Virus genome (UHGV): UHGV-1348655
Source: a virus
Length of the DNA stretch: 23,392 bases
Direction: 5' to 3' (one strand)
The position numbers were made by a program, and so were the translations under genes. Below, piece after piece: positions 2,833 to 21,647 of this stretch; position 1 is the stretch's first letter, and each line of letters opens with the position of its first letter. The notes beneath the pieces are model-generated. The model saw only the letters and a list, made by a program, of their open reading frames with translations. It did no database searches and was not told the origin of the DNA.

Positions 2833-3051
2833 ATGTACTTGACACTTCAGGAGTGGAACGCACGCCAGCGACGCCCAAGAAGCCTTGAAACAGTTCGTCG
2901 ATGGGTACGCGAGTGCAGGATATTCCCTCCTCCGGTTAAGGATGGAAGAGAGTATCTGTTCCACGAATCAGCGGTAAAGGTTGACTTAAATCGACCAGTA
3001 ACAGGTAGCCTTTTGAAGAGGATCAGAAATGGGAAGAAGGCGAAGTCATGA
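2833..3051 (+). CDS. xis: Excisionase Xis, lambda type, 72 aa
   Basis: Sequence MYLTLQEWNARQRRPRSLETVRRWVRECRIFPPPVKDGREYLFHESAVKVDL matches lambda Xis; overlaps the int start as in lambda. Confidence 0.9.
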   Translation: MYLTLQEWNARQRRPRSLETVRRWVRECRIFPPPVKDGREYLFHESAVKVDLNRPVTGSLLKRIRNGKKAKS

Positions 3052-4099
3052 GCGCCGGGATTTACCCCCTAACCTTTATATAAGAAACAATGGATATTAC
3101 TGCTACAGGGACCAAAGGACGGGTAAAGAGTTTGGATTAGGCAGAGACAGGCGAATCGCAATCACTGAAGCCATACAGGCCAACATTGAGTTATTTTCAG
3201 GACACAAACACAAGCCTCTGACAGCGAGAATCAACAGTGATAATTCCGTTACGTTACATTCATGGCTTGATCGCTACGAAAAAATCCTGGCCAGCAGAGG
3301 AATCAAGCAGAAGACACTCATAAATTACATGAGCAAAATTAAAGCAATAAGGAGGGGTCTGCCTGATGCTCCACTTGAAGACATCACCACAAAAGAAATT
3401 GCGGCAATGCTCAATGGATACATAGACGAGGGCAAGGCGGCATCAGCCAAGTTAATCAGATCAACACTGAGCGATGCATTCCGAGAGGCTATAGCTGAAG
3501 GCCATATAACAACAAACCCGGTCGCAGCCACTCGCGCTGCAAAATCAGAGGTAAGGAGATCAAGACTTACGGCTGACGAATACCTGAAAATTTATCAAGC
3601 AGCAGAATCATCACCATGTTGGCTTAGACTTGCAATGGAACTGGCTGTTGTTACCGGGCAGCGAGTTGGTGATTTATGCGAAATGAAGTGGTCTGATATC
3701 GTAGATGGATATCTTTATGTCGAGCAAAGCAAAACAGGCGTAAAAATTGCCATCCCAACAGCATTGCATGTTGATGCTCTCGGAATATCAATGAAGGAAA
3801 CACTTGATAAATGCAAAGAGATTCTTGGCGGAGAAACCATAATTGCATCTACTCGTCGCGAACCGCTTTCATCCGGCACAGTATCAAGGTATTTTATGCG
3901 CGCACGAAAAGCATCAGGTCTTTCCTTCGAAGGGGATCCGCCTACCTTTCACGAGTTGCGCAGTTTGTCTGCAAGACTCTATGAGAAGCAGATAAGCGAT
4001 AAGTTTGCTCAACATCTTCTCGGGCATAAGTCGGACACCATGGCATCACAGTATCGTGATGACAGAGGCAGGGAGTGGGACAAAATTGAAATCAAATAA
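3029..4099 (+). CDS. int: Tyrosine integrase Int, lambda type, 356 aa
   Basis: Near-identical to lambda Int from MGRRRSHERRDLPPNLYIRNNGYYCYRD to the C-terminal catalytic region (HELRSLSARLY ... LLGHKSDTMASQY). Confidence 0.95.
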   Translation: MGRRRSHERRDLPPNLYIRNNGYYCYRDQRTGKEFGLGRDRRIAITEAIQANIELFSGHKHKPLTARINSDNSVTLHSWLDRYEKILASRGIKQKTLINYMSKIKAIRRGLPDAPLEDITTKEIAAMLNGYIDEGKAASAKLIRSTLSDAFREAIAEGHITTNPVAATRAAKSEVRRSRLTADEYLKIYQAAESSPCWLRLAMELAVVTGQRVGDLCEMKWSDIVDGYLYVEQSKTGVKIAIPTALHVDALGISMKETLDKCKEILGGETIIASTRREPLSSGTVSRYFMRARKASGLSFEGDPPTFHELRSLSARLYEKQISDKFAQHLLGHKSDTMASQYRDDRGREWDKIEIK

Positions 4100-4739: not shown

Positions 4740-6197
4740 TTATTGCATGATATCTTTTGAAGACAACCCGTTTACAATTGGATTATATTGATAAAGCTTT
4801 TTGTCATATGACATTATCATTGGGTTATCATTTTCTTTAGAAAAAATATCATAGTTATCTATTGTTAAATTTGTCTTGACACCAATCCATGAAGCAAAAA
4901 AGTCAATAAAATGCTTGGCGCTTCTAGTTGTATCTGCCATTGTTGTTTCTTTGTCATCGCTAGAGGCAACAAAAAATGGAACTTGGTATGATTGTTTTTT
5001 TGATGCATCTCTTCTTACCTTATAACCATTGCCATCTTTAATCATATTTAATCCATGATCTGAAAAATACACCATGGAAAATGATTCACCAGAATCCTCA
5101 AGATATGTATATATATCCTTAATGAAATCATCTGTTTTGTTGTAAGTTGAAAGGTAGCAATTAACAACCCTGCCACTTTTTGTTTTATATTTTATTGGAT
5201 AATCAAACAATCGATCGCAAGGATATTCATGAGATCCAACAATATGAACAAATATAACTTTTCTTTCTTTTAGTTTTATCTTCTCTTTTATTACTGGAAG
5301 CAATCCGAAGTCATCAGCCTTGTTAAAATATTTAAATTTCGCATAGTTAGATATTCTGCTTGATGCAATATTATACTGCCCTGAATAACCTTGTGATGAT
5401 ATCCAAAAAGTATTAAGTCCAGCCATGTTTGCTAGCTCAACAATGTTGTCCTGCTCATAAACAGAACCATTATCACTTGTTTTAGACAGTATTCTTGGTA
5501 CGGCTAGAGTTGTGTTTATTGCTGTAGTTATATAATTACTAATGTATCTCTTGGGGATTGAGTCTATAAACGGTGTCGTATCTAAACTAAACCCATATAG
5601 CGACATGAAATCCTTTCTCATGGACTCACCAATAACAACAACATATGTATTATACTTTGGTGTAATCTTATTTTTTATCAACCAAGAACTTGCAGGAAGA
5701 TTATCTACCTGTAGGCTTTTATATTCCTTAATGATATCTGAAACCAACCCACCGAATATCATAAAGTAGCATGAAGATGTAATTAGTAGCAATGGGGTTA
5801 ATGTTATTAAAATTAATTTTCTTCTTATTTTTTTCTGTTCATAATTGAATGCATATATGATCGTGAAAACAAAAAGAAAAACTGAACAGACCATTATTAT
5901 TAAGTGCGTTGTTGGGATTGACATATGGAACTGTATTGTCTCGCTTATGTCTGTAGCAAGAAGTACGTCCAATAGTGACGGCTTTAATAGTCCTTTTGTT
6001 AGAATTGCATCTGGAATCAATACGCTAAGTAATATTCCAAAAATTAGCAATATAGTTCTTGGTATTTTAAACAAAGATAAAGAAAATAAAGTTATAAACG
6101 ATAGAAATAAAATTGATATATTTATGCTGCCAATTGCTATATATTGCATCAAATATGATAGCACAAAACTACATATTGCTATTAATAACAACTTCAC
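4740..6197 (-). CDS. Inner-membrane sulfatase-superfamily enzyme, phosphoethanolamine-transferase-like (EptA/MCR/YhbX-type), 485 aa
   Basis: GTG start at 6197 with AGAGGA 8 nt upstream. About five hydrophobic helices in the first ~160 residues, then a soluble domain with motifs VVVIGESMRKD, VHIVGSHEYP and YFSDHG that resemble the metal and nucleophile motifs of that family. The gene is visibly much more AT-rich than the phage backbone. Confidence 0.8.
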   Translation of the reverse strand: MKLLLIAICSFVLSYLMQYIAIGSINISILFLSFITLFSLSLFKIPRTILLIFGILLSVLIPDAILTKGLLKPSLLDVLLATDISETIQFHMSIPTTHLIIMVCSVFLFVFTIIYAFNYEQKKIRRKLILITLTPLLLITSSCYFMIFGGLVSDIIKEYKSLQVDNLPASSWLIKNKITPKYNTYVVVIGESMRKDFMSLYGFSLDTTPFIDSIPKRYISNYITTAINTTLAVPRILSKTSDNGSVYEQDNIVELANMAGLNTFWISSQGYSGQYNIASSRISNYAKFKYFNKADDFGLLPVIKEKIKLKERKVIFVHIVGSHEYPCDRLFDYPIKYKTKSGRVVNCYLSTYNKTDDFIKDIYTYLEDSGESFSMVYFSDHGLNMIKDGNGYKVRRDASKKQSYQVPFFVASSDDKETTMADTTRSAKHFIDFFASWIGVKTNLTIDNYDIFSKENDNPMIMSYDKKLYQYNPIVNGLSSKDIMQ

Positions 6198-14680: not shown

Positions 14681-16098
14681 TACTCGATCCTTATCTGGCA
14701 GCCAGACAGAGTGACAGGTGACTTCGTGATAATGCGCAATTTGAAGCCGACATTTTTCCTGATGCGCCCTACTCGCTTCCACAAAACACGTTTGTCGTAA
14801 ACGAACGGTTCATTCTGCTCAATCATCTGCTCACGTCCGTAATTGATGCCGTCAGTGGTTGCAGAGAGGAACAGGCGGTCGGCGTACTGCGCAACGCCAG
14901 TTGACGACTCAACTTCAAGGTCGAAAACTCTGGCGTTATCTGCTTTGAACAACGGAGTAAACAGCAGGTGTTCCTGTTGCTTGTCGTACTGGCTGCTGAT
15001 ATCGAACTGCAATTTCCCGGTCACCGATTCCAGCTTATCGCCGCACGTTATTTGATTGCCTTCGTAAATGAAGTCGATAGCGCGGTACACATCGTCATAC
15101 AGGCCTGTTTTCAACACACACCATTGCGGACCATTGGCGCTTGAAGATGCGTCGTAAACAAGAACATGGCGCGGCAGGTGAATAATCAGCAACTCATGAG
15201 CATCAAACCGCAACGATTCCATCACGCCATCAGCCAGTTCATCAGCAGCGTAGGAGCGTAGTATTTTCTCAATGCTCGCGCTGGCGATTGGTGATACCTG
15301 ACCGGAGGCGATGATGTATACAGACGGAGCACCTGTTGCCGGATTGCTGATGAACGCATAGGAATCAGCGAATGGCGTTTTGCAATAGGTTCCGGCAATA
15401 CCTTTCTGCACCATCAGCGATGGTTGTGCAACATACAAAGCGGCACCAACGGTGGTTGCACCAGTCAGGGAGAAATATTCAATCGTCGATGAACCAAAGC
15501 AGACGATGAAGTCTCGCCATGTTCCGATGCCAATGATGCCGTCAGGCTGAGACTCAGCACGATATTGTGCGCTGTATCGGTCAGGATGCGATTCGTCTTC
15601 AAGGTCAGTGATAAACCATGAATCAGTGCCGTCTTTTGACCACGCATAACGCCCACGTAAGCGTGTAATGTCGCGGACTGAACCTAACTCATACTGAGTA
15701 AATCCACTGTCTGCAGGCCAGTTTGAGACGGTTTTAACCGTGCCATCATAGCGATACTCGACCAGTTGACCATTAACGCCTACCGCCTGTGATGTCCGAC
15801 CATGCGCCATTGATACGCGACCACTTCCGGCAACATCACCGACCTCACTTTCGCCCTTATACAACTTGCTACCACACACTCGATAAACAGCACTCTGCGC
15901 CATGTTGTACTCGACGCCGCGCGATATACCGTTCACATCAGAACGTTTGGCAATGCCCGGGAATGAGCGAAGATATCCGCTGCTGTTGAGGATTTCTTTG
16001 GGTGTAGCCAACATATTCACTGGCAGATAGTCGATATAGTCGGCGTTTCGAAAGTCTTTGCCGACACCTTTCATAAGAGGAAGTTGCTGAATCGGCAT
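14680..16098 (-). CDS. Tail hub protein, P22 gp10-like, 472 aa
   Basis: Same length as P22 gp10 (472 aa); synteny after the gp4-like gene. Confidence 0.8.
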
Positions 16099-16599
16099 TT
16101 ATTCGCTCCCGTTATCGCAAGGTTCCTTTCGGTGGAAGTAATTCCAACCGTTCCACTTCGCCAACTGGTTACCGCTACCAACAGGCATACGGTTTGGATA
16201 ACCGGACTTACATTTAGCGGCTTTTGCTCTGTCCATTGCAGACAGTTTGACGAGTCGCTCTTTCCCGTATCTGGCAGTGGTTATAAGTTTTGCAGACGCT
16301 TCCAGCGCATAATCTGGAGCGATGCGGCAGGCAAGGTTGAAAATGACGGCATTGATAGCGTTATTTGATAAACCGTGCTCATCTCCCGGATCTGGAGCGA
16401 CATCTGCATCAGCGAAAATGTAGCCAACGTTGATCCCAGGTGACGCATCACCGCCAAGCCATTCAGCCATCATCATTTCAAGGTCGTTGACGCCGTCTTC
16501 CATAGACTGCGGTTCGACATCGGTTAACGTGGCATTTGATGCCACACCGAGCTTACGTAATGCCGCAAGAACTAAATCACCCTTCGTTGTCAGGTTCAT
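16099..16599 (-). CDS. Head-to-tail adaptor, P22 gp4-like, about 166 aa
   Basis: The track ORF is over-extended; the likely start is ATG 16599 ([33 protein letters not shown] ... [14 protein letters not shown]), which matches P22 gp4. Confidence 0.8.
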
Positions 16600-17164
16600 C
16601 TGCTGCCGCCTTAGGTTTTCGACCAGGCTTTTTACGCTGTTTTTCTTCTGGCTCTGCAATGGCCGGACGCAAACTCAGGAGTCGTCCAAGAACATCATTT
16701 GCTTCATGACCATCCCACTCTTTCCCGAACTCAAGCTCAGTACCTTCAGGAAGGAACTCGATTTCTTCAACAGGTAGGTGATAAGTGATTTCGCCTTCTG
16801 GAGTGGTGATACCAGCAATGATCCAGCCATCCCACTCTTCACCGTCACTGTGTTTGCGAGACCACCACGAAAGCTCAGCGTAAGCATGCATCAGCGATGA
16901 GAAGAGGCGCACTCGGTGAGCGTAAAGCTCGTTAAAAGTGTGATAACCGTCGGACACTTCGCCCATATCAACTGGGGAAGTTTCACCTCCGCCAACACTC
17001 CCAATTTGATCACCAACAAGATGATCATCAGGAACATCGTCAGGGTGCTTATACCAGCCATTTGCTAAGTGCACAGCTACATCATCAGGATCAACGGTTT
17101 TCGTTTTCAGCTTGCGTCCCCATATTTTGGTATCTCCGCCAGCCTGAAAAATCATTACGCTCAT
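16577..17164 (-). CDS. Hypothetical acidic protein (about 195 aa) inserted between coat and gp4-like genes
   Basis: Likely start is ATG 17164 with GGAG 8 nt upstream (the track start at 17344 would overlap the coat gene). Asp/Glu-rich with a Lys/Arg-rich C-terminal tail; P22 has no gene at this position, though Sf6-type phages carry one of unknown function. Confidence 0.6.
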
Positions 17165-17170
17165 TGGTAT

Positions 17171-17199
17171 CTCCAATAGAAAAGGGAGCCTAAGCTCCC
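17171..17199 (-). terminator. Hairpin plus U-tract immediately after the coat gene (partial terminator/attenuator)
   Basis: GGGAGC-ctaa-GCTCCC (17184-17199); on the minus strand it is followed by TTTTCTATT; lies 9 nt after the coat stop. Confidence 0.5.
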
Positions 17200-17207
17200 T
17201 CTGGTTA

Positions 17208-18503
17208 TCACGCGGTCTGGTTAGGCAGACCAACACCAATTGCCTCTGGTCGTACAGCACATGCTGAATACCACACAGCAATACGGCACTTACCAGACAG
17301 AGTGTTGATATCACCCTGCGTTGCGAAGATGCCGTTAACACCAATACCAGGAATGCTGAAGGAAGACGTTTTCATACCAGCAAACAGTTCATGGGTTACC
17401 GGGATCGGCTGAGACAGCAGGCGGATTGAGTCATCAGCCCAGAACACGTTAGCGGTGGTTGTTGCCACGTTCAGAACGTTTACCGGAGTGGTATCAGCAA
17501 GAGAGGTGTTTACGTTAGCGTAAGCCTTCTCTTCTTTTGTCAGTGACGCGTCATCAAGTGCAATCGGCTTCGGCGTGATTTCGATGTGAGTACCATCGAT
17601 CACACGGGTGATTGAGAAAGTCGCGTCATCAGTCAGCACGTTCTTCGCCATCTGAGACAGGAATTTCACGCCAGTGAAGCTGATTTTGTCGCCGCGCTTA
17701 AATCCGGTGGTGGAGGATACGGTCACCGTTGCAACACGGTTGTCGACGTTCTCTTTGTTACCATCGGTATCAAGGGTGTATGCCTGCGGCTTAAACTTCT
17801 GCGCACCAGAAACAGTTACACCAGTAGCGGTTGACTTGGTAACTGCCGGAAGTTTCGGTGAGCGAAGAATTTCATCAAAGCCAGCAATCTGACGCTGAAT
17901 AGTACCGTTGCGATACGCTTCTTCAGGAACGCGACCAAAGATGTCACCATCTACCAGGTTGCGGCCTGCTTTGCGGTAATCGTCAGGGTTCAGGAAGTAA
18001 CTGATGCCCATGTCGCGGTTGAGTTCTCGGGAGAACATCAGGCGCTCTGCATCAGACACAAAATCCCAGCCAGACAGGCCAGTAGATGGACCAATTGCGC
18101 GGGTGTCGTGAACAACAAGTGAGCCCATTTCAGTTGCCTGTTTGGCAATCGCTGACTCAATGTTATTCGCCAGTTTTTTGGCAGATGCCTGGATGCGGCG
18201 ACGGTAAGAACGCTCATCACGCAGGTCATCTGCACGAAGCTCGAAGAAATCGTTATCCGGATCGCCCATGTTGCATTTCACGGAGAGTTCCAGAATACCG
18301 GTTGCGTTGCCAGTTAAATCCCAGCCAGTCTGGGTTGGCGCTTCCTGCTCAACAGGCATCCACACGGTGTTGCTTGAACGCTGCATGGATTCTGCCGGAG
18401 GGGTGTATTTTGTCACTTTGGACGCCATTGGCGTCAGGTTCTGGACGGTTTCGATGATTTCATCCAGAGCATACGTGACCAGTTGACCTTCATTTAATGC
18501 CAT
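17208..18503 (-). CDS. Major capsid (coat) protein, P22 gp5-like, 431 aa
   Basis: Size (P22 coat is 430 aa) and position after the scaffold gene; TAATG coupling. Confidence 0.85.
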
Positions 18504-19427: not shown

Positions 19428-21647
19428 TTATTGAGGTGTCTCGGCTACTCCGCCGGAGGGGATTTGAACTTGACGCATAAGATTCGCGAAATCCATGCGT
19501 TGTGAATGAGTCTGGTCTGCATCTTTAAGAAGCAGCTCAGCGTTAGCACGAGCATCTTTGCTGCGCTGTTGCTGGAATTGACCTACGAGCTTGAGGTACT
19601 CACGCAGTTCTGCCTGCTTGTCGAGGTCCATATTGTTGAAGATTTCCGCAATCTTCGCCGCGTTGAGTTGGTTTTGTGCTTCAACCTTGGCAGCTTCAAC
19701 CTGAATCTGCGCCTGTTGGTTCTCTGCCTTGAGCAATTCAGCCTGACCTTGCAGAAGGATACCCTGCGCCTGAATTTGCTCTGCTGATGGCTGCTGCGGC
19801 TGCTGTTGAGCCGCTGACCTTCTCAACGCTAACATCATCGCCCGNNNNNNNNNNTGCTGTTGAGCCTGCTGTACCATCTCCATCTCTTCAGGTGTTTCTG
19901 GCTTCTTCAGCCCCATCATCACCAGTTGCTTGTTCGCGTACTCTCGCATCATCTCGACGCCTTTACCGTCAAGCAGCGTGAAGTATTGCAGCATCAGCAT
20001 CTGGAACTCTGGAGTACCTTGCGGAACCTTGGTGAGTAACTCCTGAATCTCTGCGCGGTTCTGTTCCTTCATACTCTGGAAGGATGGTCCAACGTCTGTA
20101 TAGCACTCATAACGACCGCGAATGTCGTTGAGTGTGACCACATTACCGGACTGGTAATCTACAACTTGCGCGTAGAGTTGAACGTCTTTCTCGCTACCAT
20201 CTTCAAGTGTCAGCGTTACATGACGAGGAACGTCATAAATATCGTTGACCATTGAGGCATAAATCTCGCCATCACGTCGCATTGCGGTAGCCAGGTTATC
20301 CTGAAACACGTATGTCTCAAGGTCTGCCCGCATGTTCAGTTGATTGACGGTATCAAAAGCAACCTGAGAGTTTGCTGCCTGCGCATCCACACCAAGACTA
20401 GCCACCTCTTTCACTGCGTTGGTGGCAGCCTCAAGCATGTAAGCGTTGGCTTGCGGCACTTCAGGGTTTTCCATGTAGGAGATTGGACCAATCGGAAGGT
20501 CGTTACCGTTTTCATCGGTCCTGTTCTGCAGATAGTACGGATAGTCATCATTTCCACCGTACATGTATTCGTAGCCTTCGATTTGCTCAGGGAAGAAGGT
20601 CGGTTTCTTCTTCGGTGAGCGAGCAACAATATCGGCGTTGAATGACATGATCATGTTACGAAGGCGTTGACCGTCTTTCGTCAGCCTTACCACGCCCTCG
20701 TAGCACTCCTTGTCACCAGCGAATGACCATTCGCCGTACACAGGAACGATTGGGATATGCTCTCCGGCTATCTTCTCGCGGTCTTTCAGTATCTGCATGC
20801 AGGTGATGATCGACTTATACACACGCCGACGCTTGACCTTACGCTCTGCTACCTTAATGAATCCACGATTAGCCAGGTCGTCGATGACGTCTTTGATATC
20901 CTGCTGGTAATAGCTGACCGGCTCACCTGTCAGCGGGTCGCGGTAGATGAAGACTTTCTCTTTCTTCTCTTCGACCTCGTAATACTCAGCGACGTAGACG
21001 ACATCATTCGATACCCACGGAAACAGCCATTTATCGTTCGGATTCTGGAAAGATGGCAAGGTGTCAGGATCAATACCGTAATCCTCTGCGAACTCTTTCC
21101 AGCCATTGCGTGACAAAGCGTTAATCACCGTGCAGTGCTTAGCGTCGCTCTTATCCATCTGCTTGCTGTTGGCGTCCCATATGACGTGTGAGCAGGCTTC
21201 ATGGATTGGCAGGCGTCGGATTACCTGATTGTTGCTTGTTGGGTCGTTGTCTTCGTACTGGGTGACCAGACGCCATGCACCAACGCCGGACTCTATCTGC
21301 TCACGAACGCCAACGTTAACGGCAATCTTTGCCGTGTTATGGCGCATATCAGTACGATACATTCCCATCAACACATCGGCAGCATCAGGATTAGCGCCGT
21401 CTTTGGGTCGGAAGAGAACGTCGATAGGGTTCCGGCGCATCTCTGCTACCAGTTTCCTGACCACCGGGCGAACAACATCGAATTGTCCGCGATATTGCAG
21501 GGTAGTGTAGTTTGATAGCCAGTCATCCCATTGCGACACTCGGCTAAAATACAGGTCATTTGTCGCCTCGGTTCTGGCTTCATCGCTCGCCATCCAGTCC
21601 GCGTCAAACTTACACAGAATGGAATTGAGTCTGTTTTCGTCGGCCAT
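19428..21647 (-). CDS. Portal protein, P22 gp1-like, 739 aa as given (interrupted by an N-run)
   Basis: The N-terminus [67 protein letters not shown] closely matches P22 portal; the C-terminal Gln-rich barrel region is present. Confidence 0.9.
19845..19854. other. Run of 10 N (sequence gap or masked bases) inside the portal gene
   Basis: Literal nnnnnnnnnn in the sequence. Confidence 0.99.

Follow-up and report, generated by a model that had tools for sequence, protein, structure and literature searches.

A WDGH domain in the gene between coat and gp4 of a P22-like phage genome, and its possible role in counter-defence

The UHGV virus genome UHGV-1348655 was analysed as a single stretch of 23,392 nucleotides (the window), and we describe here the gene that fills the slot between the coat protein gene and gp4, whose product carries a domain of the WDGH family (PF25311). 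The slot gene is an uninterrupted open reading frame (ORF) on the minus strand (16577..17164) that encodes 195 amino acids (aa) plus a stop codon, with its start ATG at 17164, its stop codon at 16577-16579, and a Shine-Dalgarno GGAG at 17171-17174, 6 nt upstream of the ATG. Its translation matches phrog_3769 over the full length (E=2.5e-101), identifying it as a gene of the gene-6/orf186 type. The coat protein gene lies upstream (17208..18503, minus; PF11651 P22_CoatProtein, E=2.8e-166), and the head-completion or tail accessory gene gp4 lies downstream (16099..16599, minus; PF11650 P22_Tail-4, E=1.1e-58), with its start (ATG at 16599) inside the 3' end of the slot gene, resulting in an overlap of 23 nt (16577..16599, minus). 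A longer, 255-aa reading returned by the ORF finder starts within the coat gene, and was rejected since homologs all begin at the MSVMIF methionine. The protein is acidic (pI 4.77, Asp+Glu 19.5%, net charge -18), and its sole non-acidic part is the last 30 residues (net +1), which contain a basic patch. An earlier reading of the same letters, referred to below as the original prediction, had described a very acidic protein of roughly 195 aa with a basic C-terminal tail; this description holds, and the C-terminal sequence it quoted is exact.

The original prediction had also called the gene a moron, a label that does not suit it. A scan of positions 16000-17800 found no promoter-like sites, the gene overlaps gp4, and the slot is occupied by some gene in every relative examined, with only the WDGH segment variable. 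The GC content of the slot gene is close to that of its neighbours (0.49 versus 0.50-0.53), its GC content at third codon positions is 0.40 versus 0.49-0.54, and we rejected a recent horizontal insertion judged by composition, for which these differences are weak evidence only. Because the slot gene and gp4 overlap, there is no terminator between them. Elsewhere in the window, Pfam matches identify scaffold, gp10, gp14, gp7, a tailspike head-binding domain and an integrase, and in patches the window shares 95-97% identity with Lederbergvirus phages of E. coli, among them IME10 and APC_JM3.2. On the strength of the P22-type Pfam neighbours and the identity with Lederbergvirus, we assign the window to the late operon of a P22-like (pro)phage of E. 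coli.

The slot protein is built of three parts, two of them joined by a linker. The N-terminal domain (aa 1-47; 17024..17164, minus), which is also present in P22 orf69, matches the 72-aa phrog_1175 (E=1.8e-14), aligns with P22 orf69 and with the 88-aa product of the APC_JM3.2 slot gene, and in an AlphaFold2 (AF2) model forms a beta-hairpin and a helix (residues 3-34) with a predicted local distance difference test (pLDDT) score of ∼90, the mean for the whole model being 85.9. When residues 1-53 were used as a tblastn query, the N-domain was found in 47 phage records, all of them P22-like among the matches listed, and in the coat-gp4 slot where coordinates allow. The linker that follows (aa 48-65; 16970..17023, minus) varies in length and sequence among orthologs, and is disordered in the model (pLDDT <50 at residues 50-60). 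The WDGH domain (aa 68-165; 16670..16963, minus) is modelled as a compact alpha-beta3-alpha2 unit with pLDDT >95, and is the only Pfam match of the protein, with a score of 134.8 bits (E=1.3e-39; curated gathering threshold, 27) over profile positions 1-97 of 97. The C-terminal tail (aa 166-195; 16580..16669, minus), which is modelled with low confidence, consists of PAIAEPEE, the basic patch (16610-16642) and the acidic end ADEPDNEG. At the protein level, the ortholog alignment shows a conserved basic patch, and the acidic end is constrained by the gp4 reading frame, because the last 23 nt overlap the gp4 start. Although the patch recalls an AT-hook, the window sequence (KKPGRKPK) has no GRP core and was rejected as a true AT-hook; in 47 orthologs the corresponding core is RGRP in 2, GRKP in 13, GPKP in 14 and something else in 18.

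Comparison with the closest E. coli phages places the boundaries of the variable segment. By blastn, near-identity with APC_JM3.2 and Louie ends at 16656 and resumes at 17170, and the segment between (16657..17169, minus) is replaced in those phages by short-form genes. The replacement interval encodes a protein of 82-88 aa that contains an N-domain homologous to residues 1-47, an (EP)n repeat, and a tail identical to that of the window protein. P22 orf69 follows the same two-part design of N-domain and basic tail, and Sf6 gp6 shares at least the tail. Because the short forms consist of N-domain and tail only, the window protein is an orf69-type frame that has gained, or kept, a WDGH domain between these two parts. 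The (EP)n of the short forms is encoded by a (GAGCCA)n repeat, with nine EP units in APC_JM3.2 (L001 3248-3298) and a shorter EPES version in Louie (L002 ∼3290-3330). The window retains just EPEE (16646-16657), exactly at the C-terminal junction of the WDGH segment, and the repeat may be a recombination or slippage site for gain and loss of WDGH.

Orthologs of the slot gene, ∼62% identical over residues 1-167, occupy the same coat-gp4 slot in at least 39 P22-like phage records (tblastn), including gene 6 of epsilon34 and g341c, L Orf186, ST64T orf-186, ST104 orf54, BTP1 and others. In E. coli, a cluster of 1929 member sequences (P0001) is 99% identical to the window protein; RefSeq names proteins of this type either 'hypothetical protein' or 'WDGH domain-containing protein', and full-length copies were found in 42 of 5426 complete E. 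coli genomes. The window gene has the same orientation as the P22-type coat gene and the gene 4 homolog on either side of it, and its 3' end runs over the start of gene 4, an overlap also present in P22 (orf69, 17 nt), Sf6 and epsilon34. Epsilon34 gene 6, orf186 and orf54 further share with it the three-part build of N-domain, WDGH domain and basic tail running into gene 4. The window gene is therefore the E. coli P22-like-prophage ortholog of epsilon34 gene 6, L/ST64T orf186 and ST104 orf54. It differs from the Salmonella orf186-type genes in having the tail of the E. coli short forms, a different linker, and a WDGH domain (net charge -14) more acidic than the family median. The genes of P22 (orf69), Sf6 (gene 6, HK620 hkbT-like) and APC_JM3.2, Louie and IME10 (82-88 aa) lie in the same slot and run into gene 4 with the same basic tail, but they have no WDGH domain, and a short acidic or (EP)n linker stands in its place. 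The N-domain of the window protein recurs in the short forms of P22 and of the E. coli phages, whereas Sf6 gp6 shows no obvious relationship to it in its N-terminal part.

The original prediction stated that canonical P22 has no gene between coat and gp4, which is wrong, since the P22 record (BK000583) has orf69 (69 aa) annotated there. The slot-gene family, its length polymorphism and the upstream stem-loop are already known, the family having been described since 2002-2008. Villafane et al. reported in 2008 that homologues of epsilon34 gene 6 vary in length, and that those of P22 and Scho1 "have substantial internal deletions" (PMC2629481), and 'orf186 (detailed function unknown)' has been noted as a break in the synteny of L and P22 (PMC8022706). 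The role of the epsilon34 gene 6 homologue is unknown, and P22 can do without it under laboratory conditions (PMC2629481). A literature search on P22 orf69 returned nothing on function. In two Salmonella P22-like prophages the WDGH slot gene appears broken, with 120-aa and 81-aa pieces called in one (L009 6001-6560) and only a 120-aa piece called in the other (L010 6001-6363), and because of these frameshifted or broken genes some prophage copies appear to be decaying.

A terminator-like hairpin with a 9-bp stem and a UUAG loop (17181..17202, minus) separates the coat gene from the slot gene, where the original prediction had placed a coat-gene attenuator hairpin. The hairpin, AGAGGGAGC-UUAG-GCUCCCUUU, starts 5 nt past the coat stop codon and is followed by UUUUCUAU (17176-17202, minus, for the whole), with the U-rich run at 17176-17183. 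It has the elements of an intrinsic terminator, namely a 6-bp core (five G-C; 9 bp when extended), a 4-nt loop and the U-rich UUUUCUAU, and the 76-nt region that contains it folds at -22 kcal/mol (z=-2.55 versus shuffles). A hairpin with a U-rich run stands at the same position in all five relatives compared (P22, Sf6, epsilon34, APC_JM3.2 and Louie), where the stems vary in sequence with pairing kept (GGGGC/GCCCC versus GGGAGC/GCUCCC). The window stem is GGGAGC/GCUCCC, extended to 9 bp, and not GGGGC/GCCCC. A simple consensus terminator scan did not list the coat hairpin, presumably because the maximal stem takes up three of the U residues. In existing annotation, the P22 record carries a stem_loop after gene 5 that is [quoted passage not shown], and the Sf6 hairpin is described as "likely to be a transcription terminator; t coat". 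Comparable stem-loops follow the major capsid gene of lambda and HK97, and in the window a GC-rich hairpin and a U-rich run stand directly past the coat stop, at the position seen in P22, Sf6 and epsilon34. In lambdoid phages, the RNA polymerase that transcribes the late genes is antiterminated, and for this reason the coat hairpin would more plausibly serve attenuation, or stabilisation of the 3' end of the abundant coat message, than full termination. The minimum-free-energy fold includes a second, weak hairpin (17162-17180, minus; UAUUGG...CCAAUG), in which the slot-gene start codon is paired and the Shine-Dalgarno sequence is in the loop. This second hairpin is not conserved in APC_JM3.2, P22 or Sf6, and is therefore probably incidental.

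The WDGH domain extends far beyond the P22-like phages. An exhaustive phmmer search with the domain gave homologs in 3657 clusters at 50% identity, and a profile search gave at least 7784 significant proteins, many of the top-scoring matches being stand-alone proteins of 104-134 aa. Among phage records, the domain occurs in phages of Listeria, Bacillus, Salmonella, Streptococcus, Lactococcus, Klebsiella, Staphylococcus and other hosts. Most family members stand alone or have other partners, and the orf69 frame surrounds WDGH only in the P22-like lineage. The genomic settings are varied: the WDGH gene adjoins a dimeric dUTPase gene in the early gene set of a staphylococcal phage, has the portal and minor capsid genes on either side in a pneumococcal phage, is in the early region of Erwinia phage Pavtok, and in metagenomic phages is found among replication and modification genes, in one case with DNA polymerase, UvsX, helicase, methyltransferase and NTP-transferase. 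When the sequences flanking the domain were collected from 149 representatives, the 171 extensions fell in 129 unrelated clusters, and WDGH is thus a very promiscuous, mobile and self-sufficient phage module of ∼100 aa.

Conservation within the domain is strong. All of the signature motifs (SDGYHTFxELYxHR, HxDG, YH and WDGH) are present in the window protein, and they are invariant or nearly so in four family alignments, in which the consensus reads SDGYHTFxELYxHR ... W.S..HxDG ... YH ... WDGH ... R. By alignment, ∼25-40 positions are invariant or nearly so, and these are mostly His, Asp, Arg, Tyr, Trp and Gly (in window numbering, the invariant residues are S71 D72 G73 H75, Y81 H83 R84, S102, H105 D107, Y128 H129, W150 D151 G152 H153 and R161). 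Such a set of His, Asp, Arg, Tyr and Trp residues would fit a ligand pocket or an active site, and not the surface of a mimic. An identity as a 2H-phosphoesterase or HD-domain protein was considered for the His motifs and rejected on reading the sequence, which contains no HxT/S pair, and on the modelled fold, which is alpha+beta and not all-alpha. Over 146 WDGH domains the net charge has a median of -7 and a range of -14 to 0 (median pI 5.4), and strong acidity is thus a trait of the window copy (domain net charge -14) and not of the family; full-length orthologs of the slot protein have a median net charge of -19.

A sequence search of the Protein Data Bank (PDB) gave nothing below E=0.2, whether the query was the single sequence or a profile of 30 WDGH sequences, and comparison of the AF2 model with solved structures gave no relative of the fold. 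The window protein had no match in an NCBIfam scan, and none among the PADLOC defence families at E up to 1.

The partners to which WDGH is fused provide a lead to its function. Few of the partner segments have a Pfam identity, and those that do are mostly domains named for anti-defence proteins: among the 149 representatives, Sequestin (PF21825) was found in six, Lar_restr_allev in three, Acb2_Tad1_hairpin in one and a Tad2-like domain in one, the remaining Pfam partners being YodL, an RNase_T-type exonuclease and zinc ribbons. Sequestin, Lar, the Acb2/Tad1 hairpin and the Tad2-like domain all take their names from anti-defence proteins, a point checked in the literature for Sequestin and Tad2. 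Sequestin precedes WDGH in P0143 and follows it in P0075, P0082, P0107, P0133 and P0221, and its occurrence on either side indicates that the Sequestin-WDGH fusions are independent. P0202 joins the Acb2/Tad1 hairpin to WDGH, P0150 and P0241 join Lar to WDGH, and P0101 contains a Tad2-like domain, WDGH and Sequestin in that order. Sequestin is a verified sponge of the Thoeris signal 3'cADPR, and was itself discovered through its fusion to the sponges Tad2 and Acb4 (PMC12265669).

The triple fusion P0101 (265 aa; L011 6001-6798) is encoded on a 60-kb contig, between a lysis cassette (holins, M15 endolysin and a DUF2570 protein) and the terminase and P22-type portal genes. It looks like a multi-inhibitor gene in a late-operon slot, and since it occupies the lysis-terminase interval, sponge-type genes in lambdoid late operons have a precedent. 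Two further segments without Pfam annotation were seen beside WDGH. A recurrent small N-terminal domain precedes it in P0107, P0108, P0221, P0226 and P0246, sometimes together with Sequestin, and a second domain (...YQYAASVN..G...DG...) flanks it in ∼12 proteins; either might be another accessory or anti-defence module.

The fusions to anti-defence domains, together with the pocket-like conservation, lead us to favour, tentatively and with rather less than even confidence, the idea that WDGH serves counter-defence, by binding or cleaving an immune signal derived from a nucleotide. Lacking a promoter of its own, the slot gene is transcribed as part of the late operon from beyond the coat hairpin, and probably hands ribosomes over to gp4 through the 23-nt overlap. 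Under the proposal, the protein would be abundant late in infection, when structural proteins trigger signalling defences, and its WDGH domain would bind or cleave a small signal of the Thoeris, CBASS or Pycsar type in a pocket that, judging by conservation, may be lined by the invariant His, Asp, Arg, Tyr and Trp residues. A position directly after the most highly expressed late gene would suit an abundant protein that counters defences triggered late. More ambitiously, WDGH might constitute a previously unrecognised counter-defence family of sponges or small hydrolases, spread over thousands of phage lineages, from those of Listeria to those of E. coli, and grafted in P22-like phages into the orf69 late gene so as to be made beside the capsid proteins that trigger defence; in this full form the proposal is doubtful.

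In their organisation, the known inhibitors Sequestin, Tad2 (PF11195), Acb2/Tad1, Acb4, Lockin and Acb5 are comparable to WDGH, being short phage-specific modules that occur alone or fused together. The window protein resembles none of them in sequence or fold, and carries no Tad1, Tad2, Acb2, Acb4, Sequestin or Lockin domain. Solved structures are assumed for several of the sponge families. For Lockin, a crystal structure has been reported (PMC12265669). An identity of WDGH with Acb5 was rejected because the host distributions and the reported key residues differ, Acb5 being found mostly in phages of Streptomyces and Mycobacterium (PMC12265669).

Several observations weigh against a counter-defence role. 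Inference of function from fusions is indirect, and an anti-defence partner was recognised in only ∼11 of the 149 WDGH representatives; the other partners (exonuclease, YodL, zinc ribbons and >100 unknown segments) are uninformative on defence. A literature search on WDGH and PF25311 found no relevant paper. Around three stand-alone WDGH genes there were no known anti-defence genes, just replication and hypothetical genes. The window domain, at -14, contrasts with the positively charged pockets of known sponges, and one would not at first expect an immune inhibitor to be expressed late, from behind a terminator-like hairpin. P22 is entirely without WDGH, its orf69 is dispensable in the laboratory, and frameshifted prophage copies of the slot gene exist.

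Other explanations of the gene draw on different parts of the same evidence. The slot protein might be a virion-assembly or DNA-associated factor, whose N-domain and basic tail act at head completion through contact with DNA, portal or gp4 or through encapsidation, with WDGH as cargo or modulator. The restriction of the N-domain to the coat-gp4 slot of P22-like phages, within the limits of the matches and coordinates given above, is in keeping with this, as are the embedding of the gene among head-completion genes that it overlaps, the conserved Lys/Arg/Pro/Gly patch of the tail, which resembles an AT-hook and is canonical RGRP in 2 of 47 relatives, and the position of the pneumococcal WDGH gene between portal and minor capsid genes. 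However, WDGH is mostly found outside structural modules and alone, and the AF2 model resembles no solved virion protein. Virions of epsilon34, which has the long form of the gene, gave gels 'nearly identical' to those of P22, differing only in gp13, the tailspike and a 15 kDa Dec band (PMC2629481), with no extra band at ∼21 kDa. This argues against an abundant packaged protein, although a low-copy species that co-migrates with gp7 could escape, and leaves the original prediction's proposal of delivery from the virion unsupported. We regard an assembly role as improbable, and a role as a nucleotide or nucleic-acid enzyme of phage replication, for example a small nucleotide hydrolase with no direct link to immunity, as slightly more so. 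Such an enzyme would account for the invariant His/Asp/Arg pattern, which looks catalytic, for the neighbouring dUTPase gene in the staphylococcal phage and the replication genes around WDGH in the metagenomic phage, and for the one representative fused to an RNase_T-type exonuclease. Against this, the domain resembles no known enzyme fold or family, its recurrent Pfam partners are anti-defence rather than metabolic, and the coat-gp4 slot of a late operon is an odd place for a replication enzyme.

The mechanism put forward in the original prediction was that of an acidic DNA mimic, which would block restriction or other DNA-binding defence proteins and perhaps be delivered with the virion. The low pI and the high proportion of Asp and Glu in the window protein, the similarly negative full-length orthologs and the presence of the Lar restriction-alleviation domain in a few WDGH proteins speak for it, and DNA mimics of the Ocr/ArdA type are likewise phage-encoded and acidic overall. 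Classical DNA mimics are, though, considerably more acidic than the window protein. Its model has no structural match to them, and its acidity is moderate and not family-wide, WDGH domains ranging up to neutral. The conserved residues are His, Arg, Tyr and Trp, with no carboxylate arrays, and much of the acidity is in linkers or in the tail end that lies inside the gp4 overlap; the missing band in epsilon34 virions counts against packaging here too. A DNA mimic therefore seems very unlikely, and what survives of the original prediction is the broader idea of a counter-defence gene, which the fusions to Sequestin, a Tad2-like domain, the Acb2/Tad1 hairpin and Lar support indirectly. It is just as hard to credit that the slot gene is mainly a translational and transcriptional spacer, reloading ribosomes past the coat hairpin for the gp4 start, with WDGH as a neutral or selfish passenger. 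The overlap with gp4 is kept in all relatives, slot genes vary in length between 61 and >200 aa and have interchangeable middle parts, frameshifted copies exist, and the short forms contain expandable (EP)n repeats, all of which a spacer would explain. It would not explain the strong purifying selection on WDGH, with ∼40 near-invariant positions across phages of Gram-positive and Gram-negative hosts in 3657 clusters, or the protein-level conservation of the N-domain and basic patch despite differing nucleotide sequences.

The gene as such is unremarkable, being an already catalogued accessory gene in P22-like phages, and the new point is the fusion evidence that marks WDGH as a candidate anti-defence family. 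WDGH is a widespread and strongly conserved phage module with no relative among solved structures, and because the same fusion reasoning uncovered Sequestin, it is a cheap and directly testable candidate for a next family of inhibitors of immune signals. In P22-like phages, natural alleles that have the domain (the long form of epsilon34 and L) or lack it (the short form of P22) allow an isogenic comparison.

Some further features were noted in the window and its relatives. A sulfatase-family protein of 469 aa (PF00884, E=9e-36) is encoded at 4743-6149 on the minus strand, with the tailspike gene on one side and the integrase gene (3029-4099, plus) on the other, and we suspect that this is a lysogenic-conversion or cell-envelope-modifying gene. 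Ten N bases at ∼19,800-19,850, inside the portal gene (19428-21647, minus), appear as XXXX in the portal translation, and reflect an assembly gap or masking rather than biology. In Louie (L002 4828-5355), an HNH endonuclease gene lies on the opposite strand between scaffold and coat, and is present neither in the window nor in APC_JM3.2.

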